From positions 1 to 15,903 of the forward strand of contig JAYUUO010000065.1 in NCBI GenBank assembly GCA_043754515.1: a stretch of 15,903 nt of DNA, in the 5' to 3' direction. Positions 1 to 15,858 of this stretch are shown piece after piece. Made by a program: the position numbers and the translations under genes. The DNA is from Armatimonadota bacterium (lineage in GTDB: Bacteria; Armatimonadota; Armatimonadia; Armatimonadales; Armatimonadaceae). Positions within the stretch are counted from its first letter, which is position 1. Every line of letters starts with the position of its first letter. The notes beneath the pieces were generated by a model. The model ran no database searches. It was not told where the DNA came from and was given only the letters and a program-made list of their open reading frames with translations.

Positions 1-1
1 C

Positions 2-526
2 CGGCTTCAGCCACTTGAGGTAGAGCGCGGCGAGTTCGCCCCGCCGCTTGGTGCCCTGCGTCTGCGCGAAGCGAACGTCAAAGATCACGTCGAACGGGGC
101 GTCCGGCTCATAAGCATATACGTCGCCGGAGGTCAAAGTCATTGTGCCTCCTGGGCAGTATTCCTTCGCGACGCGTAAGGCACTCTTTGCCGCGTTATGG
201 CTCAGAAACGTATGGCCATTTTCCGTCACGTCCTCGCGCTCGGTGAACAATCGGCCGAGGATTTCGGCATCCCCTTCTCTCCCCGCCACATAGTTACAGG
301 CGAACGGTGATATATCCTGCGCGGTGACGGCGTAGCCCAGGTGCGCTAGCCCCAGCGGTAGGCACGATATGCCGTTCGCCGGGACGAATATCGTCCGGTA
401 GCCGCGCTCGGCGATGAACCCTCTCACATGATTGATGACAGACTCGCTACGTATAACGTACTCCCAGAGGGCCTTTACCTTGTCGGCGAGAGTACGCTCC
501 CAATATCTAATCCCAACCGCGCACAT
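2..526 (-). CDS. Class I SAM-dependent methyltransferase (TPMT-like), 3' end runs off the window; possibly the frameshifted C-terminal part of the upstream SUKH ORF
   Basis: Not in the ORF track; translated by hand from ATG 526-524: MCAVGIRYWERTLADKVKALWEYVIRSESVINHVRGFIAERGYRTIFVPANGISCLPLGLAHLGYAVTAQDISPFACNY...SGDVYAYEPDAPFDVIFDVRF...YLKWLKP(G). It has a motif I-like IFVPANG, post-I VTAQDIS, GD/FDVI motif II and LKPG motif III. The frame is open to the window edge. Confidence 0.75.
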   Translation of the reverse strand, partial: MCAVGIRYWERTLADKVKALWEYVIRSESVINHVRGFIAERGYRTIFVPANGISCLPLGLAHLGYAVTAQDISPFACNYVAGREGDAEILGRLFTEREDVTENGHTFLSHNAAKSALRVAKEYCPGGTMTLTSGDVYAYEPDAPFDVIFDVRFAQTQGTKRRGELAALYLKWLKP

Positions 527-1136
527 TGTTCTCGTCCCACGGCATCACCGCGTTCTTCTCGGCCCACCTCACCCTTTCCAGCAGTTCTTCGTGCAACACG
601 CCGGGCGCGGACTCCGGCTTTATTGCGGATCCATCGTCCTTTCGACGGAGATACACCGCCCCCCCAGTGACGCGATCAATAGCAAGGTCCGTCCCGCGCC
701 AGCCCGTCTTCAAGGTATGGCAGGTGCCGATCAGCACAAACCGATCGGGGACATTCGTGCGGCGCGGCGCGGCTTCGACATCGTGACGAGAGTATTCCTC
801 CGACAGGCCGATGCCCCGAATCATCAAGTTGCGAAAGAGGCCCCCGCCGCAGTGCGAAAGGATCCAGCGGTAGTCGTCGGGGAAGGCGACGCCCAGTCGT
901 TGCTCGGCGGCGGCTATTTCGGCTTCTCCGACGGCTCCAAAGGCGTGGTAGGCGTCTAGGAACGATGGCGTCGCCATCGCGGTGACGAGATAATTTCGCT
1001 CCGCCGCGACAACGAACTCGCTTTTGGCGACGACGACCTTGATCACGCCGAGTTTTGGCCACAGTGCCCTTCCTATCTCATATATGCCTCTGCCACACAA
1101 CACACATAGTACGCCTGTTAATATGGGGGGCAGCAT
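507..1136 (-). CDS. SMI1/KNR4 (SUKH) family protein; start uncertain (ATG 1136 or ATG 977)
   Basis: GAVGEAEIAAAEQRLGVAFPDDYRWILSHCGGG matches the SUKH core (EI..AE..LG..FP.DY..L....GG), followed by FVLIG and LAID...G.VY. The ORF-track start at 1238 overlaps the rfbA promoter and is unlikely. Confidence 0.75.
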   Translation of the reverse strand: MLPPILTGVLCVLCGRGIYEIGRALWPKLGVIKVVVAKSEFVVAAERNYLVTAMATPSFLDAYHAFGAVGEAEIAAAEQRLGVAFPDDYRWILSHCGGGLFRNLMIRGIGLSEEYSRHDVEAAPRRTNVPDRFVLIGTCHTLKTGWRGTDLAIDRVTGGAVYLRRKDDGSAIKPESAPGVLHEELLERVRWAEKNAVMPWDENNVRGWD

Positions 1137-1209
1137 GAGAGTCAGTTCGCCGCTTAGTCGGGGCAATCCTTTGCGGCGGTGTGTTTCGGGCGCGAACCGC
1201 CAACGCCGA

Positions 1210-1238
1210 TTGACAGCCACCGTTCCTGCCGTTATCAT
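1210..1238 (+). promoter_or_regulatory. Sigma70-type promoter for the rfbA operon
   Basis: TTGACA (1210-1215), 17-nt spacer, TATCAT (1233-1238); ATG at 1248. Confidence 0.8.
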
Positions 1239-1247
1239 AAAGTCCTT

Positions 1248-2135
1248 ATGAAAGGCATTGTTCTCGCCGGGGGTAGCGGCACGCGACTATATCCGGTGAC
1301 GCTCGGGGTGTCCAAGCAACTCCTCCCGATTTACGACAAGCCGATGGTCTATTACCCGCTCGCGACACTGATGCAGGGCGGGATCCGCGACATCCTTCTG
1401 ATCTCCACGCCGCACGACTTGCCGCAGTTCGAGCGGCTACTCGGTGATGGCTCGCAGTTCGGCGTTTCGATCAGTTATGCCGCGCAAGCCGCGCCCGAAG
1501 GTCTCGCGCAGGCGTTTCACATCGGGCGTGACTTCGTCGCGGGCGGTCCGGCGGCACTCGTGCTAGGTGACAACCTGTTCAACGGCGACAAATTATCGGA
1601 GCAACTCGCGGACGCGGCAAGCGCGGCGAAGCGCGAGGGCGGCGGCGCGACGGTGTTCGGCTACCGCGTCTCCGACCCCGAGCGGTACGGCGTGGTGGAG
1701 TTCGACGCCGCAGGTCGGGCCATTTCGCTTGAGGAAAAGCCGACGAAGCCGAAGTCCTCCTACGCCGTGGTCGGGCTGTATTTCTACGACGCGCGGATTA
1801 CCGACATCGCCGCGAGCATCGCGCCCTCCCCACGCGGCGAGTACGAGATCACCGACGTCAACAAGGTATACTTGGCGAGCAATCAACTGCACGTGGAACG
1901 GCTCGGGCGCGGCACGGCGTGGCTCGACACCGGAACGCACGACTCGCTCCTGGAAGCGTCGAACTATATCGCCGCCATCGAGCACAGGCAGGGCCTCAAG
2001 ATCGCTTGTTTGGAAGAGATCGCCTACGGGTGCGGGTGGATTGACGCGGATACCGTGGAGCGACAGATCGCCCGCCTCGGCAAGACCGAGTACGCCGCGT
2101 ACCTACGCCGCCTGCTGAGCGTTCAGGAAGGATAA
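1248..2135 (+). CDS. rfbA: Glucose-1-phosphate thymidylyltransferase RfbA/RmlA
   Basis: [54 protein letters not shown] and [10 protein letters not shown] are canonical RmlA motifs; the real start is ATG 1248. Confidence 0.97.
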
Positions 2136-2138
2136 ATT

Positions 2139-2699
2139 ATGCAACCCGCCGAACGCCTCTCCCCCGCCGATCTATCGCAACGCTTCGCGTCGCTGGTCTC
2201 CACGCAGGAGTACCCGAAACGCGTCCTGCTCGAAGGGGTTCAGATCATTGACCTGCGTCTCCTGAACGACGACGGCGGCTCGTTCGCGGAGGTCGTTCGC
2301 TTCGACGGGAACGGGCGTTTGTTGCAGATCCCGGCGTTCCAGGTGCGGCAATCGTCCTACTCGCAGGTGCTACCGGGCGCGATCAAGGCGTTCCACCTGC
2401 ACTACAATCAGGAGGACGTCTGGTTCGTGCCGCCGACCGACCGGTTGCTGATCGGGCTGGTGGACGCCCGCGCCGCCTCGCCCACCACGGGGCAGACGAT
2501 GCGCTTCGTGATGGGCGGCGGCAAGGCGCAACTCCTGTATATTCCGCGCGGGATCGGGCACGGTTGCGCGAACCTGGGCACCGCCGCCGCGACGATTTTG
2601 TACTACGTCAATCAGCATTTCGACATTGCGGACCCAGACGAGCGGCGGTTGCCGTGGGATATGCTCGGTGCCGACTTCTGGGAGATAACGCAAGGCTAA
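2139..2699 (+). CDS. rfbC: dTDP-4-dehydrorhamnose 3,5-epimerase family cupin (RfbC/RmlC, SpsL-like)
   Basis: D..G.F.E, GAIKAFHLH...Q.D.WF, L.D.R..SPT.G and LYIPRGIGHG cupin motifs; 3 nt downstream of rfbA. Confidence 0.88.
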   Translation: MQPAERLSPADLSQRFASLVSTQEYPKRVLLEGVQIIDLRLLNDDGGSFAEVVRFDGNGRLLQIPAFQVRQSSYSQVLPGAIKAFHLHYNQEDVWFVPPTDRLLIGLVDARAASPTTGQTMRFVMGGGKAQLLYIPRGIGHGCANLGTAAATILYYVNQHFDIADPDERRLPWDMLGADFWEITQG

Positions 2700-2704
2700 A
2701 ACCT

Positions 2705-2956
2705 ATGGCTACCACCGAAAAATGTCACCATTGCGGCGGCTCCGACCTCGCGGCGGGCACGCTACAGTCCGGGAACGTTGACGCACGGGTCGTTATCGCG
2801 GGGCACCCGGACGGCTTTTTAGATGTGATCCCGTACACGAAATCGCCGATCCGCGCCGTCGTCTGCCGGTCGTGCGGCTACACGATGCTGTTTGCGACGC
2901 AACTCACCGACCTTCTCGCGATAGAACCGGAAGCACCTAAAAATGTCGGTTTTTGA
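2705..2956 (+). CDS. Small zinc-ribbon protein (83 aa), function unknown
   Basis: ATG 2705, 5 nt after the rfbC stop: MATTEKCHHCGGSDL...AVVCRSCGYTMLFA, two CxxC knuckles; overlaps the next gene by 14 nt. Confidence 0.8.
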   Translation: MATTEKCHHCGGSDLAAGTLQSGNVDARVVIAGHPDGFLDVIPYTKSPIRAVVCRSCGYTMLFATQLTDLLAIEPEAPKNVGF

Positions 2957-3515
2957 GGACGAGCCGGACGTATTCGCCGTGCCCGACGACTTCCCCCGCG
3001 TGCACTGGAAGCGCGAATGGGCGACGTTCGTGGCGTGCGAGAGCGAGGCGGGCGAGCCGACCGGCATCGCGCGTCCCGCCGCGCTCGTGTTCCCGTTCTA
3101 CGGAGACCGGGTCGTGCTCGCCGACATTGTGTCGCGGGGCTGGTGCATCCCGTCCGGCCATCTGGAGGCGGGCGAAACGGCGGAGGACGCCGTGCGCCGC
3201 GAATCGCTCGAAGAGTCGGGCGCGACGCTCGGCAAGACGGAGTACATCGGTTACTTCGTGCTGACCGACGCGGAAACCGGCGTCGTCCGGCACGCGCCGA
3301 CATTCATCGCGTCCGTGACGGCCATCGGAGCCATCCCCGACGGGACCGAGAGTCGCGGGTCCCAGCTAGCCGACGTCGAGGACGTCGCGACGCTCTACTT
3401 CGCATGGGACGCGCTACTCGCCGCCGTTTTCGCACATGCCTACTCCGAAAAGCAGACACGGCTTCGGGACGGAGTGTCGCTTTCCGACTTCATTACAGGG
3501 GGGAACACCGGATGA
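2943..3515 (+). CDS. Nudix hydrolase
   Basis: RGWCIPSGHLEAGETAEDAVRRESLEESGA is a complete Nudix box (GX5EX7REXXEEXG). Confidence 0.92.
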   Translation: MSVFEDEPDVFAVPDDFPRVHWKREWATFVACESEAGEPTGIARPAALVFPFYGDRVVLADIVSRGWCIPSGHLEAGETAEDAVRRESLEESGATLGKTEYIGYFVLTDAETGVVRHAPTFIASVTAIGAIPDGTESRGSQLADVEDVATLYFAWDALLAAVFAHAYSEKQTRLRDGVSLSDFITGGNTG

Positions 3516-3558
3516 AGCCGATGACATCTCCGTCAGCATCGCGGACAACAAACAAATC

Positions 3559-5700
3559 ATGAAACGCTTACTCGTTACCGGCGGGGCTGGATTCATCGGC
3601 TCGAACTTCGTGCGCTACATGCTCGGGAAGTACCCCGACTACCGCATCACGGTGCTGGACGCGCTCACGTACGCGGGGAACCTGGATAACTTCCACGACA
3701 TCCAGAACAACCCGAACTTCCAGTTTTTCAAGGGCAATATCGAGGATCCGGTGATCGTGGACAACCTCGCCCGGAACGTTGATTCAGTACTAAATTTTGC
3801 GGCCGAATCCCACGTAGACAGAAGCATTGACAACCCCGGCGCGTTTATCGAGACCGACGTGCGCGGCGTCTATGTGCTGCTCGAGGCCGCTAAAAAGTAC
3901 AATCACGAGCGGTATCTGCAAATATCCTGTTACGACGAAGCAACGCGCGCTCTGACCAAGAATGGACTGAAGCACTACTCGCAAATCAAGCCGGGAGAAA
4001 TAGTTCTTTCTCTCAATCTAGAAACCAAACTCATCGAAGAAAAAGTCGTCGACGAGGTCATTGTTCAGGATTACGACGGCGATATGGTGCGATTCAAAAG
4101 TAGTCGGATTGATCTGATGGTAACGCCAAACCATCGTATGCTCTTCACTACGCCGAGCCTTCCAGGAGTAATACGTACCGAAACCGCCGCGGAACTTTCC
4201 GAGCGGTCACTGGCACAGGCACCGCTCGGCGAGTGGCAGGGCAGATCGGAGGGGACGGTTTGCGTCGCTGGTATCGGCGCGGTAGATACAACAGACTTAT
4301 TCTATCTTTCTGGTTTGTTTATCGGTGATGGATTTACAGCGAAGCAGGAGCAGTTGCGCCCGAACAAAACGGGCTTGACCCGCGCGGAATATATCCGGTC
4401 AGGGCGTGATGCGAGCGGCCGCTTCATGCGGACAGGCAAGATTGGAACGGCCGAAACTACGACGATTACCTGTCACCGTATATTTTTCGATATTCCGGTT
4501 CATGATAAAGGGCGGAAACGCCTAGAAGAAACATTAAAACGCCTTGGTATTTCGTGGTCGGCGCATTCTGGAAGAGCGGGTGAGCATGTCTACTTTTCCT
4601 CCCAATCGTGGAGTGAATATTTTGCCCAGTTTGGGAAAGGGGCTGCAAACAAAACTATCCCTTCTTGGATGCTGTCGTTCGACGTTATTGCCCTCAAAGC
4701 ATTGTTTGACGGACTTATGGACAGCGACGGCCACTACCCTTTGCTCGGGAATGTCAATCCTCGCTTTTCTACCTCATCGTTCTACCTGATGACTTCGGTT
4801 CTAGAACTCGGTTTCAAGTTGGGATACCTGCCACGATTTACGGAGCGGGACAAAAGCGCATTCACAATCCTCAAAACCGGTCGGGTCATTCGACCAACGA
4901 TGCCTGCCTATATGGTATTTTTTCGCTCTGAGAACGTCGGTCTGAATAAAAACGTCGCTGTCAGGGAATCGTACCGCGGCAAGATATGGTGTCTGCGCGT
5001 GCGTGATAACAAAAACTTCATCGTCGAGCGCGGCGGCACGCTGACTTTCTGCGGCAACACCGACGAAGTGTACGGCAGTATTGACACCGGCTCCTTCAAG
5101 GAGGGAGACCCGCTGGAGCCGAACTCGCCCTACTCCGCGAGCAAGGCGGGCGGCGAACTGCTGGTACGCGCCTACCACGTCACGTACGGCGTTCCGACCA
5201 TCGTCACGCGCGGGTCGAACACGTTCGGGCCGTTCCACTATCCCGAGAAACTGATCCCGCTGATGATCACGAACGCCATAGACGACCTACCGCTCCCGGT
5301 CTACGGCGACGGCAAGCAGGTGCGCGACTGGATGTATGTGCTGGATCACTGCGCGGGGATTGATCTTGCCCTGCACGCCGGAACACCCGGCGAGATATAT
5401 AATGTCGGCGGGGGCAACGAGCGGTTCAACATAGACGTCGTGCGGGCGATTCTCGCGCACCTCGGCAAGGGCGAAGACCTTATCCGCTACGTGCGCGACC
5501 GTCCAGGACACGACCGCCGTTACGCGATTGACTGCGCGAAACTCGGCGCGCTGGGCTACGCGCCGGAAACCTCTTTTGACGCGCGGCTAGAGGAGACGGT
5601 GCGCTGGTACGTAGACAACGAGGCGTGGTGGCGCAAGATCAAAGAAAAGCAGGACGAGTACAAAAAATTTGCCGAACGCTGGTACGCCGACCGGCAGTAG
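3559..5700 (+). CDS. rfbB: dTDP-glucose 4,6-dehydratase RfbB/RmlB precursor containing an intein (713 aa; 336 aa after splicing)
   Basis: MKRLLVTGGAGFIGSNF, LTYAGN, FAAESHVDRSI, QIS|TDEVYG (split by the intein), PNSPYSASKA, YPEKLIP, RDWMYV.DH, DRPGHDRRYAID. The real start is ATG 3559. Confidence 0.96.
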   Translation: MKRLLVTGGAGFIGSNFVRYMLGKYPDYRITVLDALTYAGNLDNFHDIQNNPNFQFFKGNIEDPVIVDNLARNVDSVLNFAAESHVDRSIDNPGAFIETDVRGVYVLLEAAKKYNHERYLQISCYDEATRALTKNGLKHYSQIKPGEIVLSLNLETKLIEEKVVDEVIVQDYDGDMVRFKSSRIDLMVTPNHRMLFTTPSLPGVIRTETAAELSERSLAQAPLGEWQGRSEGTVCVAGIGAVDTTDLFYLSGLFIGDGFTAKQEQLRPNKTGLTRAEYIRSGRDASGRFMRTGKIGTAETTTITCHRIFFDIPVHDKGRKRLEETLKRLGISWSAHSGRAGEHVYFSSQSWSEYFAQFGKGAANKTIPSWMLSFDVIALKALFDGLMDSDGHYPLLGNVNPRFSTSSFYLMTSVLELGFKLGYLPRFTERDKSAFTILKTGRVIRPTMPAYMVFFRSENVGLNKNVAVRESYRGKIWCLRVRDNKNFIVERGGTLTFCGNTDEVYGSIDTGSFKEGDPLEPNSPYSASKAGGELLVRAYHVTYGVPTIVTRGSNTFGPFHYPEKLIPLMITNAIDDLPLPVYGDGKQVRDWMYVLDHCAGIDLALHAGTPGEIYNVGGGNERFNIDVVRAILAHLGKGEDLIRYVRDRPGHDRRYAIDCAKLGALGYAPETSFDARLEETVRWYVDNEAWWRKIKEKQDEYKKFAERWYADRQ
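3928..5058 (+). mobile_element. Intein with LAGLIDADG (DOD) homing endonuclease, 377 aa
   Basis: Block A CYDEATRALTKNG (Cys1); block B VTPNH; LAGLIDADG motifs LFYLSGLFIGDG (4297-4332) and LFDGLMDSDG (4702-4731); block F KIWCLRVRDNKNFIV; ends FCGN with Thr at +1. Removing it restores QISTDEVYG. GC is lower than in the extein. Confidence 0.95.
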
Positions 5701-5720
5701 GCGCGGGCCGGAATTCGTGG

Positions 5721-6842
5721 TCATTGGATCGTGGTCGTCAAGGGGCTATGCCACGCCATCACGGACACCCCCAGCCCACCTACTTGCGGGTCAATCGTTA
5801 GCACGTCGCCGACCTGCGTGAACCCGCCCGTGATCATTGCTTCAGCGTTCGTTAGCAGGTGTCCGTCGAGATCGAGGAGCGGCACGATCTTTTCGCCCAG
5901 CGCGACCGCCAGATGTAGTGCCGCCCCGATGCCGATGTGGGTCTCCATCATGCAACCGAAAAGGCACACGCCACCCGCTTCGTATGCCGCCCGCGCGATC
6001 GCTTCCGCCCCGGATAAGCCGGACTTCGCCAGTTTCAGCACCACCCCGCCGCAAATCCCGTCGCCGATCAGACGCCGCGCGTCCTGCGCGTCGTGGCACG
6101 ACTCGTCGGCATAGACCGGGATCACCGCCAGGAGGCTTCGATGCACTGTCGCCATCGCCGCGTCATCCCCCGCCGGGGTCGGCTGCTCAAACAGCTCTAT
6201 GCGCGGGAAAAGGTCTGTCAAGCCGTCGAAGAGCCAGAGCGCGGCGGCCGGGTCGAAAGCCTGGTTCCCGTCAAGTCGGAGGGTGGCGTCGGGTGCCGCT
6301 TCCGCGACGGCGCGGACACGCGCGATGTCTTCCGCCATATCGCCGGAACCGACTTTGAGCTTGAGGGCGCGGAACCCCGAACGCGCGGCTTCTGCGGCAC
6401 GGAGCCCCGCCTCGACCGGCGTCAGTATCGGGAGTGACAGGTCCGTCACGCGCGAGACGAGCGGGTTCGCCACCGCGTCCGGGTTCAGTAGGCGGTAGAG
6501 CGGTACCCCTAGGGCGCGTGCCACCGCGTCCCGCACCGCTATCTCGACCGCGCTGCGTGCGCCGGGGAAGTCCGCGAGTTCGTGCAAAGCGCGGGCCAGC
6601 ACCGCGTCCGGCGACTCCGGCGCGTGGTGTTCGAAGAAGCGGCGTAGCACGTCCACGACCGAGGCCTGCGTTTCGCCGGTGACATAGGTAGCGGGCGCGG
6701 ACTCACCTAGCCCGATAAACTCTCCGTCTAGCGTGATTGTCATCAGCACGTTGCGCGCGATGGTCGTCAGCCGCTTCGCCGAGCGGTACGGCGAGCGCAT
6801 CGGCACATCCCACGCGCGGGCACTCCAGTTCGTGATCATCAT
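5721..6842 (-). CDS. Dipeptide epimerase (L-Ala-D/L-Glu epimerase family, enolase superfamily)
   Basis: GLGESAP..YVTGET, KLKVG (KxK), LDGNQ, EQP, ADES, LKLAKSG, GCMME and DLDG motifs; likely start ATG 6842 or 6839. Confidence 0.9.
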   Translation of the reverse strand: MMITNWSARAWDVPMRSPYRSAKRLTTIARNVLMTITLDGEFIGLGESAPATYVTGETQASVVDVLRRFFEHHAPESPDAVLARALHELADFPGARSAVEIAVRDAVARALGVPLYRLLNPDAVANPLVSRVTDLSLPILTPVEAGLRAAEAARSGFRALKLKVGSGDMAEDIARVRAVAEAAPDATLRLDGNQAFDPAAALWLFDGLTDLFPRIELFEQPTPAGDDAAMATVHRSLLAVIPVYADESCHDAQDARRLIGDGICGGVVLKLAKSGLSGAEAIARAAYEAGGVCLFGCMMETHIGIGAALHLAVALGEKIVPLLDLDGHLLTNAEAMITGGFTQVGDVLTIDPQVGGLGVSVMAWHSPLTTTIQ

Positions 6843-6850
6843 AGGCGAGT

Positions 6851-6859
6851 ATGGTAGCA
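6851..6859 (-). promoter_or_regulatory. Possible extended -10 promoter for the epimerase gene
   Basis: The minus strand reads TGcTACCAT, 8 nt before ATG 6842; no good -35 element. Confidence 0.4.
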
Positions 6860-6918
6860 CGAATGATGCACAAACCGCGCGGAAAGTTTGTCGCCCAGTG
6901 TGTCAGGCGAACCAGTCC

Positions 6919-6947
6919 TTGACACCCGGTAGGCGACGTGGCACAAT
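6919..6947 (+). promoter_or_regulatory. Sigma70-type promoter for purS-purQ(-crp-tmk)
   Basis: TTGACA (6919-6924), 17-nt spacer, TGg extension and CACAAT (6942-6947); ATG at 6958. Confidence 0.75.
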
Positions 6948-6957
6948 ACGAATCGTT

Positions 6958-7206
6958 ATGCCTAAAGTTACCATCCACGTTATGCCGAAGCCCACGATCC
7001 TGGACGCGGAGGGGCGCACCGTGCGCGACGCGCTCCACAGCCTCGGTTTCGCGGGCGCGGACAACGTGCGCATCGGCCGTCACATCGAACTGTCCCTGCC
7101 GGACGCGACGGACGCAGAGACAGCGGCGAGCGAGGCGAGGGCGATGTGCGACAAACTGCTGGCGAACCCCGTGATCGAGGATTATCACATCGAGGTCGGG
7201 GCTTGA
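6958..7206 (+). CDS. purS: Phosphoribosylformylglycinamidine synthase subunit PurS
   Basis: 82 aa: V.PKPTILDAEG..V..AL..LGF...VRIGRHIEL...MCDKLLANPVIEDY; directly upstream of purQ. Confidence 0.95.
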   Translation: MPKVTIHVMPKPTILDAEGRTVRDALHSLGFAGADNVRIGRHIELSLPDATDAETAASEARAMCDKLLANPVIEDYHIEVGA

Positions 7207-7946
7207 GCGATCCCCTCAAGATCGGCGTCGTCGTGTTCCCCGGGTCGAACTGCGACCGGGACGCCGGATGCGCCTGGGCGTCTGACCTCGCGCTCGGCGA
7301 GACGGTATACCTGTGGCACGCGGAGACCCACCTACCCGCTGATCTAGCGGCGGTGATCGTGCCGGGGGGGTTTTCGTACGGGGACGCGCTCCGGGCGGGC
7401 GCGATTGCCCGGTTCGCCCCGATCATGGGCGCGGTCGCGGACTTCGCGAAAGACGGCGGGTTCGTGCTGGGAATCTGCAACGGCTTTCAGATTCTGTGCG
7501 AAGCGGGGATGTTGCCTGGCGCACTCGTACGTAACGAGCAGATGCGCTTCGTCTGCCGACACGTCAACCTGCGCGTCGAGACGACCCGCTCCCCGTTCAC
7601 GGCACAATACGCGAAGGGCGAGGTGGTCGCGGTACCCGTGGCGCACGGCGAGGGCCGGTACGTTTGCGACGACGCGACGCTCTCGGCACTCCAAGAAAGC
7701 GACTCCATCCTGTTCCGCTACTGCGCGGCGGACGGCAGTATCACCGGCGACGCGAACCCGAACGGTTCGCGCGACAACATCGCGGGGATAGTCGGCGGGG
7801 TTCGTCGCAACGTGCTGGGCATGATGCCCCACCCCGAACGCGCGGTGTTGACCCGCCTCGGGAGCGAGGGCGGGACGAAGTTGTTCACCAGCCTGCGCGA
7901 GTCGTTGATTATCGCGGACGTCGAACCGGTTATGCTGATCGCCTGA
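7203..7946 (+). CDS. purQ: Phosphoribosylformylglycinamidine synthase glutaminase subunit PurQ
   Basis: VVVFPGSNCDRD, PGGFSYGD, LGICNGFQIL, AHGEG.Y, NPNGS..NIAG and GMMPHPER; the probable TTG start overlaps the purS stop (TTGA). Confidence 0.96.
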   Translation: MSDPLKIGVVVFPGSNCDRDAGCAWASDLALGETVYLWHAETHLPADLAAVIVPGGFSYGDALRAGAIARFAPIMGAVADFAKDGGFVLGICNGFQILCEAGMLPGALVRNEQMRFVCRHVNLRVETTRSPFTAQYAKGEVVAVPVAHGEGRYVCDDATLSALQESDSILFRYCAADGSITGDANPNGSRDNIAGIVGGVRRNVLGMMPHPERAVLTRLGSEGGTKLFTSLRESLIIADVEPVMLIA

Positions 7947-8001
7947 ACGCCATCTATCGAAAGGTTTGGCGCGGGACCGCCGACCGCGCTGTCGCATACA
8001 A

Positions 8002-8685
8002 ATGTCACTTAATCAAGCCCTCGCGGCGATTCCCCTGTTCTCGGATCTTGCGGAAGAGCAACTCTCGCTGGTCTCCCATTACCTGAAGCGATTCACCTTC
8101 GACGAGCGTGAGGTGATCGTTAAGCGCGACTCCCCCGGCGACGCTCTTTTCATCATCGTGGCGGGGAAGGTGAAGGTCTCCTACGTCGAAGAGGAGGACG
8201 AGACGATCATCGCGGTGCTTTCCCCCGGCGACTTCTTCGGCGAACTCTCGATCATTGACGGCGAAGGGCGTTCCGCCGACGTCTCGGCCGTGGAGCAGAC
8301 CGAGGTGCTGATCCTCTCTGCGACGGACTTCAAGCAGTGTCTGGACACCATGCCCGCCATCGCCTTTTCACTCCTGAAGGAGATCGCGGGGCGGCTCCGT
8401 CGCTCGACGACCTGGATCCGGGTTCTGTCGTCGCAGGACGTTTACGGTCGGATCGCGCAACAGCTCCTTTCGCTCTCCGACCTACACGGCACCGACATGC
8501 CCGATGGCGGGCGCAGGATCAATCTGCGGCTGACGCAGAACGACCTGGCCGGTATCGTCGGCGCGTCTCGCGAGTCCGTCAACAAGGCACTCGGCTATTT
8601 CAAGCAGAAGAACTGGGTCACGGTAGACACGTCCTACCACATCACCGTATTCAACCGCGAAGCACTGGCGAAGCGATGTCAGTGA
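8002..8685 (+). CDS. Crp/Fnr family transcriptional regulator (cNMP-binding domain plus HTH)
   Basis: IPLFSDL, FFGELSIIDGEGRSADV (phosphate-binding cassette GE..RS), HTH LTQNDLAGIVGASRESVNKAL; start ATG 8002. Confidence 0.93.
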   Translation: MSLNQALAAIPLFSDLAEEQLSLVSHYLKRFTFDEREVIVKRDSPGDALFIIVAGKVKVSYVEEEDETIIAVLSPGDFFGELSIIDGEGRSADVSAVEQTEVLILSATDFKQCLDTMPAIAFSLLKEIAGRLRRSTTWIRVLSSQDVYGRIAQQLLSLSDLHGTDMPDGGRRINLRLTQNDLAGIVGASRESVNKALGYFKQKNWVTVDTSYHITVFNREALAKRCQ

Positions 8686-8689
8686 ACCA

Positions 8690-9304
8690 ATGAGCGGCGT
8701 TTTTCTGACGTTCGAGGGGGGCGAGGGCGCGGGCAAGACGACGCAGATCGCGCGGCTCTCTGGCGCGCTCGTCGCCCGCGGCCACGCGGTGGTGTGTACG
8801 CGCGAGCCGGGGGGCGACCCTGTCGGGGAGCGGGTTCGCGCCCTGCTTCTGGACCGGGACGCGGCACCGGTACCCGCCGCCGAACTCCTCCTGTTCGCCG
8901 CCGCCCGCGCACAGAACGTCGCGACCGTAGTTCGCCCCGCCCTGGAGAGAGGGCAGGTCGTGCTGTGCGACCGATTCACCGATTCCACGCTCGCGTACCA
9001 GGGCCACGGTCGCGGGCTACCCCTCGCGGCGATCCGCGCCGTAAACGAGATCGCGACCGGTGGTCTCATTCCGCTACGTACCTTCCTGTTCGATCTTGAT
9101 CCGGCGGTCGGGCTTGCCCGCCAATCGCCCGACGCGCAGAATCGTTTAGACCGGGAGCGGCGCGACTTTCACGAGCGGGTTCGGGCGGGGTTTTTAGCGG
9201 CGGCGCGCGCCGACCCGGACCGATTCGTGGTTCTGGACGCGACGCGGGACCCCGAAGCGCTGTTCGCCGAACTGCTCGACGCGACGCTGACACTTCTGGC
9301 GTGA
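8690..9304 (+). CDS. tmk: Thymidylate kinase
   Basis: FLTFEGGEGAGKTTQ P-loop, TREPGG, ELLLFAAARAQ, CDRFTDSTLAYQG.GRG and FHERVR.GF. Confidence 0.96.
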   Translation: MSGVFLTFEGGEGAGKTTQIARLSGALVARGHAVVCTREPGGDPVGERVRALLLDRDAAPVPAAELLLFAAARAQNVATVVRPALERGQVVLCDRFTDSTLAYQGHGRGLPLAAIRAVNEIATGGLIPLRTFLFDLDPAVGLARQSPDAQNRLDRERRDFHERVRAGFLAAARADPDRFVVLDATRDPEALFAELLDATLTLLA

Positions 9305-9332
9305 CCGTAGCCCCGCGCGCCGTGTCCAACGT

Positions 9333-9361
9333 TTGACGCGCTACGCGGCGGCGCGTATACT
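9333..9361 (+). promoter_or_regulatory. Sigma70-type promoter for the FHA/PP2C/kinase operon
   Basis: TTGACG (9333-9338), 17-nt spacer, TATACT (9356-9361); ATG at 9377. Confidence 0.75.
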
Positions 9362-9376
9362 GCGAGTACACACACT

Positions 9377-10573
9377 ATGGACATTCTGGAACGATTGAAC
9401 CGCCGCTTCGGCTCGTGGTACGAGGGGCTGTTCGGGGGTGGCGAAACACTCGACACCGAACTGCGCCCGAAGGATATTTTGCGGCGTATTCTGACGGCGA
9501 TGGAGGACGGGCGGCGCGAGGGTTTGGACGGCCAGGTATATGTGCCGAACGCCTACACGTTGCGCTTCGCCGTGGTCTCCGACGCCGAGCGCGACTACCT
9601 ACGCGCTTTTCTGAGCGCGGAGGAGCTGGCGACCGCCGTCGCGCGCGCGATTTCCCAGCACGGCTACCGCACCCGAGGGGCATTGCTATTCGTGATTGAG
9701 GAGGCGGATGCCGCCGACCCGAACACAGGGCGCGTGTCGGTCGCCTGCCGGTTCGATACCGCCGTGACCTCGCCCCCCGAAGTGACCGGCGAGCAACCGG
9801 CGGTGGTCCCCGCCCCGCAGGTCGGGGCTCCTTCCCCTCTGCCGGTTCCCACTCGTGAACCGCGCGTGACTGTCCTGGAGGAGGAGCCGGGCACGGTTCC
9901 CGCCGCGTTCGCGCACGGCGGGGCGATTCTCGCTACCCTGTTGGTCCGCTCCGGCGAGGGGCGGTCGCTCGAAGCGTTCCCGCTCACCCCGCGCGGCGTG
10001 CTAATCGGGCGTAGCCGACAGGGCGGGAACGACATAGTGCTGAACGACTCACAGATATCGAAGCGGCACGGGCACATCGCGTTCGAGAACGGCGGCTTCG
10101 TCTACTATGACGACAAAAGCACGAACGGTAGCCACATGAACGAGGCGCAACTCGCGCCCGGCGTGGCGCACCGCATTGAGTACGGTGGAGTAATCCGTCT
10201 CGGCGAGACCACCCTCACGCTCCGCCCAGCGGGAGGCGAACCCGCGCCCGCTGCCCTACCCGCTTCGCGGTTCGCCCCGTCGCAGGGCGTGTCGCTCGTA
10301 TCCCGGGACGGCGTCGTGGAGCGGCTGGCCTCCGAAATGACGGTGGGCCGTGGCGTGACCGCCGATCTGGTTCTCGCCGGTCCCACCGTTTCCGACAAGC
10401 ATGCCCGCATTAAAACGTCCGACACCGGGCGGCTCACGGTGGAGGATTTGAACACACCGACCGGGACGTTCGTGAACGCCGAGCGGATCCCACCCCTCTA
10501 TCCCGTGACGTTGCGCGATGGCGACACGGTAGTTTTTGGTGGCGGTTCGCCTTATACGGTACGGATCGGATAA
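9377..10573 (+). CDS. FhaA-like protein: N-terminal DUF3662/FhaA_N-like domain, Pro-rich linker, two FHA domains
   Basis: The N-terminus MDILERLNRRFGSWYEGLF...LRPKDI.RR...AM...YVPNAY resembles FhaA_N. FHA1: IGRS..NDIVL.D.QISKRH...DDKSTNG. FHA2: VGRG..ADLVL....VSDKHA...EDLNTPTGTFVN. Confidence 0.88.
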   Translation: MDILERLNRRFGSWYEGLFGGGETLDTELRPKDILRRILTAMEDGRREGLDGQVYVPNAYTLRFAVVSDAERDYLRAFLSAEELATAVARAISQHGYRTRGALLFVIEEADAADPNTGRVSVACRFDTAVTSPPEVTGEQPAVVPAPQVGAPSPLPVPTREPRVTVLEEEPGTVPAAFAHGGAILATLLVRSGEGRSLEAFPLTPRGVLIGRSRQGGNDIVLNDSQISKRHGHIAFENGGFVYYDDKSTNGSHMNEAQLAPGVAHRIEYGGVIRLGETTLTLRPAGGEPAPAALPASRFAPSQGVSLVSRDGVVERLASEMTVGRGVTADLVLAGPTVSDKHARIKTSDTGRLTVEDLNTPTGTFVNAERIPPLYPVTLRDGDTVVFGGGSPYTVRIG

Positions 10574-10574
10574 G

Positions 10575-10697
10575 ATGGAAGCGACGGGGAACGCGAGCCT
10601 GATTTTGTTCCTGCGCATTCTGTTCGCGGCTCTGCTGGTGCTGTTCGCCGCTCTGTTACTGTTTCTGAACGCCCGCAACAACGGAACGAACCGCTAA
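10575..10697 (+). CDS. Small single-pass membrane protein (40 aa)
   Basis: Below the ORF-track size cutoff; ATG 1 nt after the FhaA-like stop: MEATGNASLILFLRILFAALLVLFAALLLFLNARNNGTNR*. It has one long hydrophobic helix and fills most of the gap before the PP2C gene. Confidence 0.7.
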   Translation: MEATGNASLILFLRILFAALLVLFAALLLFLNARNNGTNR

Positions 10698-10729
10698 ATA
10701 CCACGCTCCGACAGGATTTTCTCCCGAAG

Positions 10730-12421
10730 ATGACTTCCCCTTCCTCCCACCCCGCTATCCGCCTCGACATCGCCGCCCTCACCGACAAGGGCGTCAAGCG
10801 GGCGGCGAACGAGGACGCCTACGGGCTATTCGATCTACCCTCCGTCAGCGCGACTATTGTGGTCGCTGATGGCATGGGCGGTTTGCAGTCAGGGGATGTC
10901 GCCTCGGGCGAGGCCGTCTCCGTCATGGAGGCGACGCTAAGGGAGCGGATCGGCGCGGGGGACACGCCGGGCGACGCGTTCGCCGAGTCGTTCGCCCGAG
11001 CGAACGAGCGGGTATTCGCCATAGCGGAAGCGGTGCGGCTCCGGTCAGAGGAGACGGCGAAACAGGCGGAGGCAGACATGCCAACCGCGAAGCGCGGCGA
11101 CTATAGCAAGACGGCACCCGCCCCTAAATCGTCCACGCCGCTGATGGGCACCACGGTGGTCGCCGGAATAATCCGGGGTGACGTTCTTACGGTCGCTCAC
11201 GCGGGCGACTCGCGCCTGTACCGGCTACGGGGTGGTGTGCTGGCGGCATTGACCTCCGACCATTCGTTCGTGGCCGAGCGGGTGCGGGCGGGTGATATTT
11301 CCGAGGAGGAGGCGCGGGTGTCGCGCTTCCGTAACATGATCACGCGCGCCGTGGGCATTGACGCCGCCATCCAGCCGGAAGTGAAGACAGAAACGCTGGA
11401 ACCCGGCGACACGCTCCTGTTCTGCACCGACGGGCTGAATACGATGATTGACGACGCGGAGATCGGCTCGATTCTAGCCCGCGCCGATTCCGCGAAGGGG
11501 GTGATTACCTCCGAGCGGATCGCAACCGCGCTCGTGGACGCGGCGAACCGGCGCGGCGGCTCGGACAACATCACGGTGGTCGTGGTACGCGTGCTCGGCG
11601 CGGACAGCGATTCCCCCGCCGCCCCCGTACCACTTGCCCCCGCCGCCGCGAAGAAGCCCGAGCCGCGTCCCGCCCCCGCCATGGAACGCCGCGTGGATAA
11701 GCGACCCGAGGTCATGGATATGGAGGCAACCCGCGCACCCGGCAGGAATCGTGGCAGTGTCCCGCCGTTCGTCGCCCTTCTCGCCTTCATCGGCGTACTG
11801 ACGCTGGGGGTCGGCGCGATCCTCGCCGCTTCCAAAGAAGTACGTCAGAACATCGGCCACGCCCTCGCCCCCCGCCCCGCGCCGGTGTCTCTCGACACGC
11901 CGGTCGGCGAGATCCGCGACGGGGTGATACACATCAAAGACTACACGAAGATGACCTACAAGGCACCGGTTCCCTTCGGCGATAGGATATTCTCCGCGCG
12001 CGGCGACCTACTTGCCTACTCCCCCCGCGCCGGGATATTTTTCGTGACGGATTCGGGCGGGCAGATGGCTTACCTCTCGAAGGCGGGGCAGGTGATGAAA
12101 CCCATCGCCTCCTTCGTACCCCAACCACCGCCCCCGAAGCCGGCCCCGGCGTCGCGCGTATTCTTCGCGGCGGATTTACAGGGCAACACGTACATCTCCT
12201 ATCCGGCGCGTAAACTCATCGAGAAGTACGACCGGAACGGGGTGAAGAGATGCAGGATCACGAGCACGGAGTCGCCGGAGGCATTGGTGGTTGACGAGGA
12301 CGGCAATCTGTACGTGATCTATGACGGCACCATCAAGAAACTCGAGGCGGTGATGCCGACGGCGGGCACTACTCCAGCGGTCGGCACTCCGACGAAACCA
12401 AAAGCGTCGGCGAGTCCGTAG
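10730..12421 (+). CDS. PP2C/PPM-family Ser/Thr phosphatase (Stp1/PstP-like) with a TM helix and a C-terminal NHL/beta-propeller-like domain
   Basis: TDKG.KR..NED, VADGMGG, MGTT, AHAGDSRLY, LTSDHS, RNMITRAVG, CTDGL and GGSDNIT; TM FVALLAFIGVLTLGVGAILAA (~11768-11830); blade-like AADLQGNTYI and PEALVVDEDGNLYV. Confidence 0.92.
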   Translation: MTSPSSHPAIRLDIAALTDKGVKRAANEDAYGLFDLPSVSATIVVADGMGGLQSGDVASGEAVSVMEATLRERIGAGDTPGDAFAESFARANERVFAIAEAVRLRSEETAKQAEADMPTAKRGDYSKTAPAPKSSTPLMGTTVVAGIIRGDVLTVAHAGDSRLYRLRGGVLAALTSDHSFVAERVRAGDISEEEARVSRFRNMITRAVGIDAAIQPEVKTETLEPGDTLLFCTDGLNTMIDDAEIGSILARADSAKGVITSERIATALVDAANRRGGSDNITVVVVRVLGADSDSPAAPVPLAPAAAKKPEPRPAPAMERRVDKRPEVMDMEATRAPGRNRGSVPPFVALLAFIGVLTLGVGAILAASKEVRQNIGHALAPRPAPVSLDTPVGEIRDGVIHIKDYTKMTYKAPVPFGDRIFSARGDLLAYSPRAGIFFVTDSGGQMAYLSKAGQVMKPIASFVPQPPPPKPAPASRVFFAADLQGNTYISYPARKLIEKYDRNGVKRCRITSTESPEALVVDEDGNLYVIYDGTIKKLEAVMPTAGTTPAVGTPTKPKASASP

Positions 12422-12446
12422 AACGATAAGGGAGGCGAGGCGACAA

Positions 12447-14291
12447 ATGGCAGCGGGTTCCATAGGCAAATACGAGCGTCTGGATGTGCTGGGGCATGGC
12501 ACGTCCGGCGTCGTTTATCTCGCCTGGGACACACTGCTTCGCCGACAAGTCGCCCTAAAAGAGATCCGCGCCGACGGGCCGGAGATGGAGCGGCTTCTGG
12601 ACGAGGCGCGCGTATTGGACCGACTACGGCACCCCAATATCGTGCGTATTCATTCGGTGGACGTCGCGCCCGACAACGTGGTTTTGCTTGATATGGAACT
12701 GATACGGGGGCGCAACCTCGCGTCGCTGATCAAGGAACGCGCGGGGGTGCCGTTCCCCCCGGATGAGGCGGCGCGGATCGCGCTCCCCGTTCTAGACGCC
12801 CTCGGATACGCGCACGAACGGCGGATCATTCACCGCGACGTCAAGCCCGCCAACATCCTACTCGGGGACGACGGCACGGTCAAACTCACCGACTTCGGCC
12901 TCGCAGAAGCATTGGGCACCGGCTCGGTCGCGGGCGGTGGCGGCACGTATCCGTACATGGCACCCGAAGATTTCGCCGAGGACGCGGCGAGCGACCGCCG
13001 CTCCGATTTGTGGGCAGTCGGAGTACTTCTCTACGAGATGCTCACCGGCAGACGGCCGTTCACCGTCGCGCGGATCAAGGACCCGTTCGCGTGGAAGCGG
13101 ACGGTCGAGCAGGACGAGCCACCCGTCCCGACCGACGTGAACGCGAGTCTCGCCCCGGCCTGGAACGTGATTCTTTCCCGCGCTCTAGCAAAAAACAAAG
13201 AGGAGCGGTGGGGTGCCGCGCGGGAGTTCATGGACGCCGTGTCGCGCGTCAGCGGAGTGTCCACGGAGTCGGCTCCGGCGGCGCAAGAGGAATCCGCCTC
13301 GGAGCCGCCCCGGACGCGCCGCTACGAGCCCCCGCCCGTCGTCGGCGTCCCCCGCCCCCCGGCTAGCGTTCCGCGCCCGCCGATGCCCATCTTCGCGCCG
13401 CCCGCGCCCGGCATGAGGGGCGGCGCGTTCGTGTTCGCCGCGACGGGCGAGATCGTTTACACGCTGGATGAGCTGCTCGCGATGGCGGCGCGGAACTGGG
13501 ACGAGTCGCGCCGCGCCTTGCTTGAAGGGCGCGTCGAAGGTTTTTTGCGTGGCATCGGCGAAGTTTATGTCGCGGATCTCGCCGGGGAGATGTTCCAGCG
13601 AAGTCACGCGGGCGAGTCGCCGGACCGGCTTTTGAAAGAGTTTCTGGAGCGGGCGCGGGGCGAGGAGTTGGCACCGCAACGCACCACTCCGAAGTTCGCC
13701 GAAGCGGAGATGGGAACCGTGGCGGCGCGCCCCGTGCCCCCCGGCGGCGATAACGTTTCGCGAGAACGGGACGCAGGCGTGGACGCGGTCGGGTCGCCAC
13801 CGGCCTCCTCTCCCGACGATCAGGGGGGGCCGAAGCCGGGAAAATCACCCGGCACCCGGTGGTGGTACTGGCCGGTTCTCGCGCTGTCTTCCGCCTCGCC
13901 CGGTGTCGCGGTGCTCGCCCTCGCGCAACCCGGAGCACGGCACGCGGGGGACCCGACCGGTCTGTTGTTGCTGGCGGGCGCGACATCCGGCGTGTTCTGC
14001 GTGATGCTGGTGCTGATCGCTATGGGGACGCGCATGGCGTGGTCGGCTCGGCTACTGCCGCTGGTGCCGATGGGTATCGGCGGGCTGTGCATGGGCGGAT
14101 TGATCGCGCGGTCGAACGCATCCGGCGCGAACTTAACGGCGCGAGACCTCGTCCTGATCGCCTCGCCGGTCGCGTTTCTCGTCTTGCAGGCAGCCACCGC
14201 CCGTGTTTTATGGCGCCTGTGGCTCGGTTTCCTAATTGCGGTCGCCGCCGCCACAGTACTGGTTTTCGCATCGGGGCAGTTGAACTTTTAG
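12447..14291 (+). CDS. Hanks-type Ser/Thr protein kinase with a C-terminal multi-TM region
   Basis: LGHGTSGVVY, VALKE, HPNIV, HRDVKPANIL, DFG, YMAPE, SDLWAVG and G..PF; Pro-rich linkers; about 5 hydrophobic helices at the C-terminus; GGAGG upstream. Confidence 0.95.
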   Translation: MAAGSIGKYERLDVLGHGTSGVVYLAWDTLLRRQVALKEIRADGPEMERLLDEARVLDRLRHPNIVRIHSVDVAPDNVVLLDMELIRGRNLASLIKERAGVPFPPDEAARIALPVLDALGYAHERRIIHRDVKPANILLGDDGTVKLTDFGLAEALGTGSVAGGGGTYPYMAPEDFAEDAASDRRSDLWAVGVLLYEMLTGRRPFTVARIKDPFAWKRTVEQDEPPVPTDVNASLAPAWNVILSRALAKNKEERWGAAREFMDAVSRVSGVSTESAPAAQEESASEPPRTRRYEPPPVVGVPRPPASVPRPPMPIFAPPAPGMRGGAFVFAATGEIVYTLDELLAMAARNWDESRRALLEGRVEGFLRGIGEVYVADLAGEMFQRSHAGESPDRLLKEFLERARGEELAPQRTTPKFAEAEMGTVAARPVPPGGDNVSRERDAGVDAVGSPPASSPDDQGGPKPGKSPGTRWWYWPVLALSSASPGVAVLALAQPGARHAGDPTGLLLLAGATSGVFCVMLVLIAMGTRMAWSARLLPLVPMGIGGLCMGGLIARSNASGANLTARDLVLIASPVAFLVLQAATARVLWRLWLGFLIAVAAATVLVFASGQLNF

Positions 14292-14319
14292 TGCCGATCC
14301 CGGCACACATCGGAACATT

Positions 14320-15858
14320 ATGATGACACCACGTAAGTATATCGGCTGGGGCTTACTCGCCCTGCTCGTCCTGGGCGTCGGCAACTTCGCCGTCGGAAAC
14401 ATCCAGACCAAAGGCTCCTTGGGCAAGATCGCACAGGGCGGCGCGCAGACCGCTGTCGGCGTACGCGAGTTGATGGAGCGGAACGTGCTATTTGACGCGT
14501 TACAGGGTGGGGCACCGCCGAAGACGCGTCTCGCCGCTATCGCCGCGCTCAGCGAACTCGCGCGGGATGGTAAAAATTCGGGGGCATTCAAGCAGCTCTT
14601 GCAGATGCTGAAGGATCCCGACACGGAGACCACGCAGGACAAAACGCACCCGGTGCGCGACGCCGCGCAGGGCGCGGTGGCGTCGGTCGGCGCGCTCTAC
14701 CCGGACCTGTTGCTGGACGCTGCCAAAGATCCTGACGGCAACATCCACGATCAGTCGCGCACCGCTTTGAAGACCATCGGCGCGAAGATGCAAACGCAGA
14801 TGGCCGCGCGTCTGGGTGACGCCGCGCTCCGGGCACCGCTCGGCGAGATACTCGCGGGCATCGGCCCCCAAACGGTACCCCTGGTGACGCCGTATCTCGC
14901 GCCCGCCGAACTCGACAAACTCAAGGACAAGCCGGACGATCTGGAGACGGCGAAACTCCAGCTCATCGAGATCCTCGGCAAGTATCAAGTTCAGCCCGCC
15001 GCCGAAGCCGTACTACCGTTCGCGAAAGACCCTGATCCCAACGTCCAGCGCGGCGTACTGACCGCTCTCGCCAACATCGCGAGTCCGGTCGGCGAGCCGG
15101 TCTTACGCGCCGCGTTGATGAGCCCCCAGACCGACGCCTCCTCGCGTGCCGCCGCCGCCGCGACCCTGGGCGCGTTCGGCACCACGGATGCGAACGACGC
15201 GATGGTGTCCGCGCTTTCTGACTTCGACATCGCGGTCGCGGACGCCGCCGCGTCGGGCCTCGCCCGCGCGGCCGTGACGGACGAGGCGACCGCCCGCGTC
15301 GCGATCACCCGCGCCCTGTCCTCCCCCGACCCCGCGGTGCGCTCCCGCGCGGCGTCCGCGACCAGAGGCATGTCGCAAGGCGACCTCGCGACGAAGGCGA
15401 TCACAGACGCGGACCCCAGCGTCCGCGCCGCCGCTGCCGTTTCGCTGGGCGATATTCTCGCCCGGCGGGGCGCGAAATCCCCCGCCCCGACTCAGGGCGA
15501 GATAGTGCCGCTCGTGGGCGCGCTACGGGATAAGGAAGGCGTGGTCGCCGACGCCGCGCAGATGGCACTGGCACGGGTGGGAGCCGCCTCCGTGCCGGAA
15601 GTGGTAGCATTGCTCGCGGACAAAGAAGACACGGTCGCCTACTACGCCGTTCGCACCCTCGCCCAAATCGGTCTGCCCGCGTTCGATGCGGTGGCGCAAG
15701 CCGCGCGGACCGGACAGCCGGGCGCGCGGTGGGCGGCGGTGACGCTGGGCGAACTGGGTGACCCACGCGCGAAGCCGGTGCTGGAGTCGTTGAAGGCGGA
15801 CACGGACGCACCCACGGCGGCGGCGGCGGTTGACGCACTGGCGAAGATAAGCGGCTAA
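14320..15858 (+). CDS. HEAT-repeat (PBS lyase-like) protein with an N-terminal signal or membrane anchor
   Basis: Repeated L.D.D..VR..AA..LG units (e.g. KDPDPNVQRGVLTAL, SSPDPAVRSRAA, TDADPSVRAAAAVSLG, WAAVTLGELGDPRA); N-terminal RKYIGWGLLALLVLGVGNFAVG. Confidence 0.88.
   Translation: MMTPRKYIGWGLLALLVLGVGNFAVGNIQTKGSLGKIAQGGAQTAVGVRELMERNVLFDALQGGAPPKTRLAAIAALSELARDGKNSGAFKQLLQMLKDPDTETTQDKTHPVRDAAQGAVASVGALYPDLLLDAAKDPDGNIHDQSRTALKTIGAKMQTQMAARLGDAALRAPLGEILAGIGPQTVPLVTPYLAPAELDKLKDKPDDLETAKLQLIEILGKYQVQPAAEAVLPFAKDPDPNVQRGVLTALANIASPVGEPVLRAALMSPQTDASSRAAAAATLGAFGTTDANDAMVSALSDFDIAVADAAASGLARAAVTDEATARVAITRALSSPDPAVRSRAASATRGMSQGDLATKAITDADPSVRAAAAVSLGDILARRGAKSPAPTQGEIVPLVGALRDKEGVVADAAQMALARVGAASVPEVVALLADKEDTVAYYAVRTLAQIGLPAFDAVAQAARTGQPGARWAAVTLGELGDPRAKPVLESLKADTDAPTAAAAVDALAKISG

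Follow-up and report, generated by a model that had tools for sequence, protein, structure and literature searches.

The window analysed here, a 15,903-nt stretch of an Armatimonadota bacterium (positions 1 to 15,903 of the forward strand of contig JAYUUO010000065.1, GenBank assembly GCA_043754515.1; genome G000 below), contains an rmlB open reading frame (3559..5700, + strand) of 713 aa in all that is interrupted, with no stop inside the insert, by a full-length intein (3928..5058, +; 377 aa, Cys1 to Gly376-Asn377) lying between Ser123 and Thr124 of the encoded dTDP-glucose 4,6-dehydratase. The N-extein (3559..3927, +; 123 aa) carries the GGAGFIG NAD-binding motif at residue 8 and AAESH at residue 81 and ends in QIS with Ser123. 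The C-extein (5059..5700, +; 213 aa) starts with TDEVYG, in which Thr124 (both the +1 nucleophile and the catalytic Thr) is followed by Asp125 and Glu126, and also holds the catalytic YxxxK residues Tyr148-x3-Lys152 (5131-5145, +). Joined, the exteins give an RmlB of 336 aa (123 + 213). This agrees with the sequence-only reading from which the work started, which had described a 377-aa in-frame insert from Cys to Asn splitting QIS/TDEVYG in a 336-aa spliced enzyme, and whose predicted flanks for the empty site agree with the sequence as well. The atypical splicing residues described below (Gly at G6, Cys at F4 and Lys at F13) had escaped that reading.

The joined exteins score 432.5 bits against the RmlB model TIGR01181 (cut-off 365.1) and bear the full RmlB signature, with GxxGxxG at residue 8, [ST]DE at 124-126 and YxxxK at 148-152. 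Their matches to PF16363 (1-128 then 129-331) and PF01370 (2-114 then 115-240) run on contiguously across the junction. The [ST]DE...YxxxK residues form the catalytic signature of these enzymes, the acid/base pair being Asp and Glu (PMC8987622; statements taken from cited papers are, here and below, those of excerpts). The C-extein's opening residue, Thr124, aligns with residue 127 of 1r66 and residue 149 of 6bi4 (RmlB/DesIV structures) and, in a tabulated match whose alignment was not displayed, with residue 134 of 1bxk; alignment to solved structures thus bears out the earlier claim that the +1 Thr is the catalytic Thr of the TDE motif. By its sequence, then, the host gene is dTDP-glucose 4,6-dehydratase RmlB, an activity supported by its rmlA and rmlC context. 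The nearest relatives of the locus carry Armatimonadota labels, and strong purifying selection acts on the exteins (dN/dS 0.07 against congener G002).

The anatomy of the insert is that of a splicing domain split by an endonuclease. Its N-terminal Hint part (3928..4260, +; about residues 1-111, the boundary being approximate) begins with Cys1, contains the block B residues Thr66 and His69 (4123-4134, +) and has Met, not Trp, at B12. There follow LAGLIDADG motif 1 (4297..4332, +; residues 124-135, reading GDG with acidic Asp134), a basic loop of ∼45 aa (4336..4473, +) with NKTGL and RDxxGRF that is modelled at low pLDDT (predicted local distance difference test), the conserved endonuclease lysine Lys242 (4651..4653, +), which we take to belong to block D, and LAGLIDADG motif 2 (4693..4731, +; residues 256-268, reading SDG with acidic Asp267). 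Both LAGLIDADG acids are intact, as had been noted from the letters. The C-terminal Hint part (4957..5058, +), placed by aligning it with the inteins Mja KlbA and PI-PkoII, supplies Cys355 at F4 (4990-4992, +), Lys362 at F13, Cys375 at G5, Gly376 at G6 and Asn377 at G7.

An AlphaFold2 model of the intein, built from a five-sequence alignment (pLDDT 69 overall, moderate in the endonuclease region), superposes on the Hint domain of 6zgq (VIA-align Z 16.3, root-mean-square deviation 2.2, 131 residues) and in Foldseek finds PI-SceI (E 3.5e-12) and I-DmoI (E about 3e-4); the modelled fold is a Hint domain plus a double LAGLIDADG. A five-sequence profile picks up the Mja KlbA intein (E 2.4e-4) and the PI-PkoII intein. 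In the model this architecture is shared with PI-SceI, PI-PfuI, PI-PkoII and Tli/PhoVMA, from which the intein differs in sequence (10-19% identity), in being shorter than PI-SceI and in carrying the RDxxGRF loop after motif 1. The insert sequence by itself found no match in PDB or NCBIfam and stays under the Pfam cut-offs (Intein_splicing 24.2 vs 35.8 bits, LAGLIDADG_3 15.7 vs 22.5). In the search with Hint and LAGLIDADG_3 hidden Markov models (HMMs) that had been proposed as a check, 38/40 aligned family members match Intein_splicing and 26/40 LAGLIDADG_3 at E ≤ 0.01. The rmlB intein was likewise not among the matches of a genome-wide PF14890 search of this genome, so standard HMM cut-offs overlook such inteins.

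A protein database search with the intein returned 323 homologues, and in all of the best 120, the ones listed, the C-junction lies at the identical TDE site. The N-junction is visible in 118 of these 120 (the two in which the N-part is missing were excluded from the census below), and TDE follows Asn in 118/118. Cys1, Thr66, His69, Lys242, Cys355, Gly376 and Asn377 are invariant in 118/118 alleles; Asp134 and Asp267 are each kept in 116/118 and D134, K242 and D267 jointly in 114/118. Position G5 is Cys or Ser in every one of the 118, and Trp occurs at B12 in none of the 117 that are readable there. No mini-inteins were seen among the 118 alleles (354-384 aa) in a search that favoured full-length forms. 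Since the same junction recurs in the 120 listed homologues and is bridged by contigs from other studies (see below), the insert is, on sequence grounds, an intein and neither chance nor an assembly artefact; the predicted Hint and LAGLIDADG fold, the junction residues and the 118 alleles all uphold the original call.

For splicing, the intein has what a class 1 mechanism uses: Cys1, the block B Thr/His pair, a C-terminal Asn, a +1 Thr and, in the predicted model, a Hint fold; removal of the insert leaves a contiguous host protein, and the site is vacant at the loci of 24 relatives. It lacks the usual Asp at F4 and His at G6 and F13, having Cys355, Gly376 and Lys362 there instead. The assisting histidines are dispensable in some inteins, ∼5% of functional inteins being without His at G6, and Cys is the second commonest residue at F4 (PMC4031507). 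Class 1 inteins ending in Gly-Asn are known (Ceu ClpP, Pno RPA2, Cre RPB2 and Candida ThrRS; PMC1635734). These resemble the present one, by description rather than by comparison of sequences, in Cys1, LAGLIDADG and the Gly-Asn terminus (found here in 118/118 alleles) and differ in their hosts, and the +1 residue here is Thr. Class 3 inteins, defined by the lack of an N-terminal nucleophile and by a Trp-Cys-Thr triplet (PMC2807308), share with it the Cys at F4, the +1 Thr and a hydroxyl or thiol at G5; a class 3 mechanism was rejected because Cys1 is present alongside a canonical Thr/His block B, with Met at B12 and either Cys or Ser, not Thr, at G5. Because Cys at F4 is common, some 5% of inteins lack His G6 and Gly-Asn ends have precedents, we infer that the route is class 1, with Thr124 serving first as splicing nucleophile and then as the catalytic Thr of the enzyme.

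By this route Cys1, assisted by Thr66 and His69, would attack the Ser123-Cys1 bond, and the N-extein would be transferred to Thr124. Asn377 would then cyclise although neither G6 nor F13 has its usual His, possibly helped by Cys355, Lys362 or Cys375, and an O-N shift would rebuild the 336-aa enzyme and release Thr124 for catalysis. An unspliced precursor would have 377 residues wedged in its active site. As the only rmlB detected in the genome is interrupted at the catalytic Thr, it is a sound inference that making the dTDP-6-deoxysugar (surface-glycan) precursor would depend on splicing; the earlier wording, 'depends strictly on splicing', is well founded to that extent, one RmlB above the family cut-off having been found in the whole assembly, which is 92.7% complete.

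We next consider how the intein came to the locus. Its third-position GC content (GC3) is 0.56, compared with 0.80 in the exteins, and intein GC3 is the lower in 26/26 rows compared, some of which are duplicates. Among relatives (61 searched, 30 loci read) the site is filled in six (G000, G002, G012, G018, G038 and G006, the last allele being interrupted by a contig end) and empty in 24; a long frame in G051 was rejected as an intein, being an upstream open frame. Across the phylum, 5/401 genomes have a full-length match to the intein, and in a further 26 there are weak matches, which fall on inteins of other genes. On a tree of 28 extein alleles (leaving out G006 and L011) the five whole filled alleles require five changes and are grouped in 0/200 bootstrap trees. 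Between G000 and its congener G002 the intein differs at 102/128 fourfold sites and is saturated (saturation 0.74), whereas the exteins, with 59/139 differences, are not (saturation 0.64), and six neighbouring genes differ at 0.38-0.58, which suggests from these sequences that the two inteins were acquired separately. Endonuclease-core dN/dS is 0.08-0.24 in the ten of 16 allele pairs for which a value was obtained.

The same site is occupied far outside the phylum. A GTDB scan (L064-L081) gave, among the matches listed, bacterial contigs labelled Chloroflexota, Omnitrophota, Clostridia, Actinomycetota, Planctomycetia, Gammaproteobacteria and Acidobacteriota and archaeal ones labelled Methanosarcinales and an Asgard archaeon; in contigs bearing different phylum labels (L069-L074, L076, L079) the inteins are 62-79% identical and the exteins 43-68%. 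Viral contigs L144 and L146-L148 hold the intein at the RmlB TDE site. Viral contigs L144-L148 all have intein-bearing genes of the short-chain dehydrogenase/reductase (SDR) superfamily, that of L144 lying inside a sugar-biosynthesis cluster on a 219-kb contig.

Two acidic motifs, a conserved Lys and the predicted fold mark the central domain as a LAGLIDADG endonuclease, which would cut intein-free alleles at the catalytic codon, repair then copying the intein in, with phages that have SDR genes as plausible carriers. The insertion site would be retained since the TDE motif has little room to vary and loss would be tolerated only if precise. Judged from these alleles, the intein lineage is clearly mobile on an evolutionary timescale and this copy is likely mobile at present, and a selfish element rather than a host regulator is the best explanation of it. 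The suggestion that the element 'may still be mobile' accordingly stands for the lineage and is weaker for this allele, the environmental runs described below having yielded no empty one. Signs of co-conversion are borderline in the window's own allele (GC3 near the site 0.61 vs 0.80, p 0.057). Within one genus, the filled L005 and the empty L012, L013 and L016 have AT-rich third positions from codon -10 to +8, and L018 does not; these tracts (p 1.6e-5 to 4e-3, uncorrected, with 28 alleles tested) may have been left by earlier homing and loss, or may reflect recoding against cleavage.

Eight environmental sequencing runs (seven independent studies and one possible source) could be placed on the locus. 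None of the runs listed has an RNA record, and X15, a run labelled RNA, is probably DNA. Intein pieces near-identical to the window occur in all eight, with near-identical copies in glacier, ice and freshwater runs, and independent contigs bridge the N-junction in two other studies and the C-junction in one. No contig in the eight runs joins 3927 to 5059, as an empty allele would, contigs being records of presence and not absence that drop rare variants; with no empty joint and intein pieces in all eight runs, the intein allele may be fixed in this species. In runs X5 and X6 a patch of the C-extein (window 5076-5399, starting 18 nt past the junction) is ∼5% divergent next to a near-identical intein, on contigs of depth below 5, and is possibly a recombination tract.

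It appears to us, with a probability of roughly 0.8, that the RmlB insert at Ser123/Thr124 is an intein of full length that carries a LAGLIDADG endonuclease, likely spliced by the class 1 route and likely spread by homing. Several observations weigh against this. Both assisting histidines, at G6 and F13, are absent from the intein; the endonuclease-core dN/dS of the window's own allele is saturated and could not be computed; taxon labels of contigs from metagenome-assembled genomes can be wrong; the intein tree retains two pairs of the extein tree (L001 with L064 and L065 with L067, all Armatimonadota), which also fits inheritance with repeated loss; the fourfold excess in the intein of L065/L067 is not significant (p 0.06); and there is the missing empty allele in the eight runs. 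The shared pairs and the missing empty allele, together with the AT-rich tracts that the empty L012, L013 and L016 share with the filled L005 as if an intein had been lost, would also be expected if the intein splices and is immobile in this lineage, having been gained once by an ancestor in the order, inherited vertically and precisely lost many times. Such a history is unlikely given that the catalytic residues of the endonuclease are intact, that the 118 alleles include no mini-inteins, that intein GC3 is unadapted to the host, that fourfold divergence from the congener is far above that of the host genes, and that the starred branches of the tree force at least four changes.

Less probable still, and in our view improbable by any measure, is a domesticated conditional switch in which Cys1, Cys355 and Cys375, or a slow His-less last step, gate splicing by redox or cold and with it the supply of dTDP-6-deoxysugar and surface glycan. 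An insertion at the catalytic residue, in a gene present as one copy, the invariant Cys355 and the Cys or Ser at G5 in all 118 alleles, the near-identical copies in glacier, ice and freshwater runs and the conditional splicing reported for other inteins (PMC4513877, PMC6195587) would suit a switch; against these stand its absence from 24/30 relatives' loci, one of them a congener's, the Cys at F4 that is widespread in related inteins of unrelated hosts, and eight other inteins in the genome, pointing to a general permissiveness. That the insert does not splice, being an assembly chimera or a Hint element that is dead or capable of cleavage only, and leaves the gene inactive, might be read from its sub-threshold Pfam scores and missing His G6 and His F13, and is next to impossible to square with complete extein catalytic motifs at dN/dS 0.07 against G002, junction residues kept in 118 alleles, junctions bridged in independent runs, and intact rmlA, rmlC and rmlD.

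Ahead of rmlB in the same cluster lie rmlA (1248..2135, +; glucose-1-phosphate thymidylyltransferase, TIGR01207 459.5 bits, above cut-off), an rmlC-like epimerase gene (2139..2699, +; above the PF00908 and below the TIGR01221 cut-off) and, between rmlC and rmlB (2705-3515), a short ORF bearing two CxxC motifs as well as a Nudix hydrolase gene, which is found near rmlB in congeners G002 and G003 too; rmlD is on a separate contig, C207. Elsewhere in the window are an SMI1/KNR4-family protein (507-1238, -), an enolase-superfamily gene opposite rmlB followed by a PurQ-like glutamine amidotransferase, a Crp-family regulator and thymidylate kinase (5721-9304), and a signalling cluster of FHA-domain protein, PP2C phosphatase, Ser/Thr kinase and HEAT-repeat protein in series (9377-15858).

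The genome as a whole looks permissive to inteins, since it carries eight more in replication and nucleotide genes: GyrA holds three, and there is one apiece in GyrB, DnaB, DnaE, a RecD-like helicase and ribonucleotide reductase (contigs C1, C107, C116, C213, C273 and C280, hosts named from their sequences and not by profile scan). A candidate second intein-bearing SDR on contig C255 was rejected, being two separate intein-free genes. RmlB itself is, from the sequences compared, an intein hotspot. Among 107 further long RmlB-like proteins, 18 have an intein at Glu83/Thr84, 19 at Ser123/Thr124 (four of this lineage and 15 of an unrelated Ser1 type of ∼510 aa) and two near Asn177. Congener G003 (L031:2821-3957, -) has an empty TDE site and a 379-aa Ser1...His-Asn intein of the Methanothermus fervidus type at Glu83/Thr84. 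The archaeal M. fervidus intein itself (P0346), also Ser1...His-Asn and at Glu83/Thr84, has hardly any similarity to the one studied here (best local score 26.6 bits). At the Ser/Thr-Asp-Glu site proper, a Ser1 intein of ∼500-515 aa occurs in L234:223-2736 (the archaeal genome G427, where it is a ∼505-aa Ser1...His-Asn type), P0267, P0275, P0287 and others. In P0062 a second intein follows the catalytic Tyr, and P0062, P0170, P0270, P0367 and L181 show additional RmlB-like sites after that Tyr and at two places in the TRGSNT stretch, some with two inteins. In G444 (C1:2059491-2061664) ∼1.2 kb, possibly an insertion sequence, splits rmlB into two separate frames.

Inteins in this enzyme have been recorded before. 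About 83% of bacterial intein hosts act in replication and repair or nucleotide metabolism (PMC4760082), so the statement that sugar-nucleotide enzymes are minority hosts was correct. The supplement of the same survey (Novikova et al., 2016) lists RfbB/RmlB (COG1088) inteins in Archaeoglobus profundus and M. fervidus, in the same host enzyme as here, as well as eight WcaG inteins (Cyanobacteria), one in GMD and ten in UDP-glucose dehydrogenase, likewise nucleotide-sugar enzymes and likened to the present case by host only; the portions of the supplement available give no insertion sites and list no bacterial RfbB intein (PMC4760082). That list probably includes the TDE site already, via an unrelated intein, because G427, in the order of the Archaeoglobales locus L092, has an intein there (1/94 genomes of the order, among the matches listed). 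InBase includes the 'Ter Ndse' epimerase inteins. We found no paper on this intein lineage or site in the literature searched, which InBase and most subscription journals lay beyond, and the excerpt of PMC7765530 held nothing relevant. With RfbB/RmlB inteins published and an unrelated Ser1 intein at the same codon, the novelty of the locus is limited, and the element is widespread in uncultured microbes; the rarity implied at the outset is not borne out, given these inteins and the 323 homologues.

Beyond RmlB, an exhaustive family search at E ≤ 1e-30 gave 154 cluster representatives, the best 150 of which comprise 95 SDRs, 13 NadE proteins and 42 others. In the 85 SDRs with a readable C-junction (32 of them RmlB-type), the intein lies at the catalytic Ser/Thr register in 70, one codon earlier in eight and one codon later in seven, as judged from the distance to the conserved YG or from the motif. 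Nine hosts were spot-checked. RmlD and NAD synthase were the best match of one host each, PseB, Gmd and RmlB-like models of two each, and one host had none; all but the NAD synthase match were below cut-off. The RDxxGRF loop is present in most SDR- and NadE-type members, shortened in some of both, and absent from ThyX/NrdD-type relatives (28-row alignment). From its position it would be a DNA-contacting extension; a search of the ESM Atlas with the loop gave no match at ≥ 0.9, lower ones being no more than a lead. The closest inteins outside the SDRs are those of NadE (L082, L084, L087-L093; P0191), at Phe/Thr-Lys-Tyr-Gly, and the aligned ones mostly have the loop. Cys at F4 is found throughout related inteins in unrelated hosts.

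We tentatively propose that one lineage has passed from enzyme to enzyme at the catalytic Ser/Thr codon throughout the nucleotide-sugar SDR superfamily (RmlB, Gmd, RmlD, PseB/PglF-like, CDP-glucose-dehydratase-like and others), reaching NadE as well, by inter-paralogue homing aided by a lineage-specific, DNA-binding RDxxGRF loop, in bacteria, archaea and phages, a proposal that we hold to be quite possible and somewhat short of probable. Ectopic movement between non-allelic sites has been raised for Gly-Asn inteins (PMC1635734), and no paper on the wider SDR-tracking pattern was found in the literature searched, most subscription journals being outside its reach.

The single locus is best seen as an ordinary selfish element in an already listed host enzyme, and the family is the more useful object. 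A splicing domain that lacks both C-terminal histidines and uses a +1 Thr would be of mechanistic and tool interest if it splices efficiently, and the pair of unrelated inteins at one codon offers a system for studying site competition. What deserves follow-up is the way the family as a whole tracks the SDR catalytic codon. The family provides a naturally occurring series in which a single homing intein has moved among paralogous targets that differ in sequence and by plus or minus one codon, making the ectopic spread of inteins directly testable. If the proposal is true, two unrelated inteins would compete for one RmlB codon, and surface-glycan enzymes would be a large and overlooked class of intein hosts.

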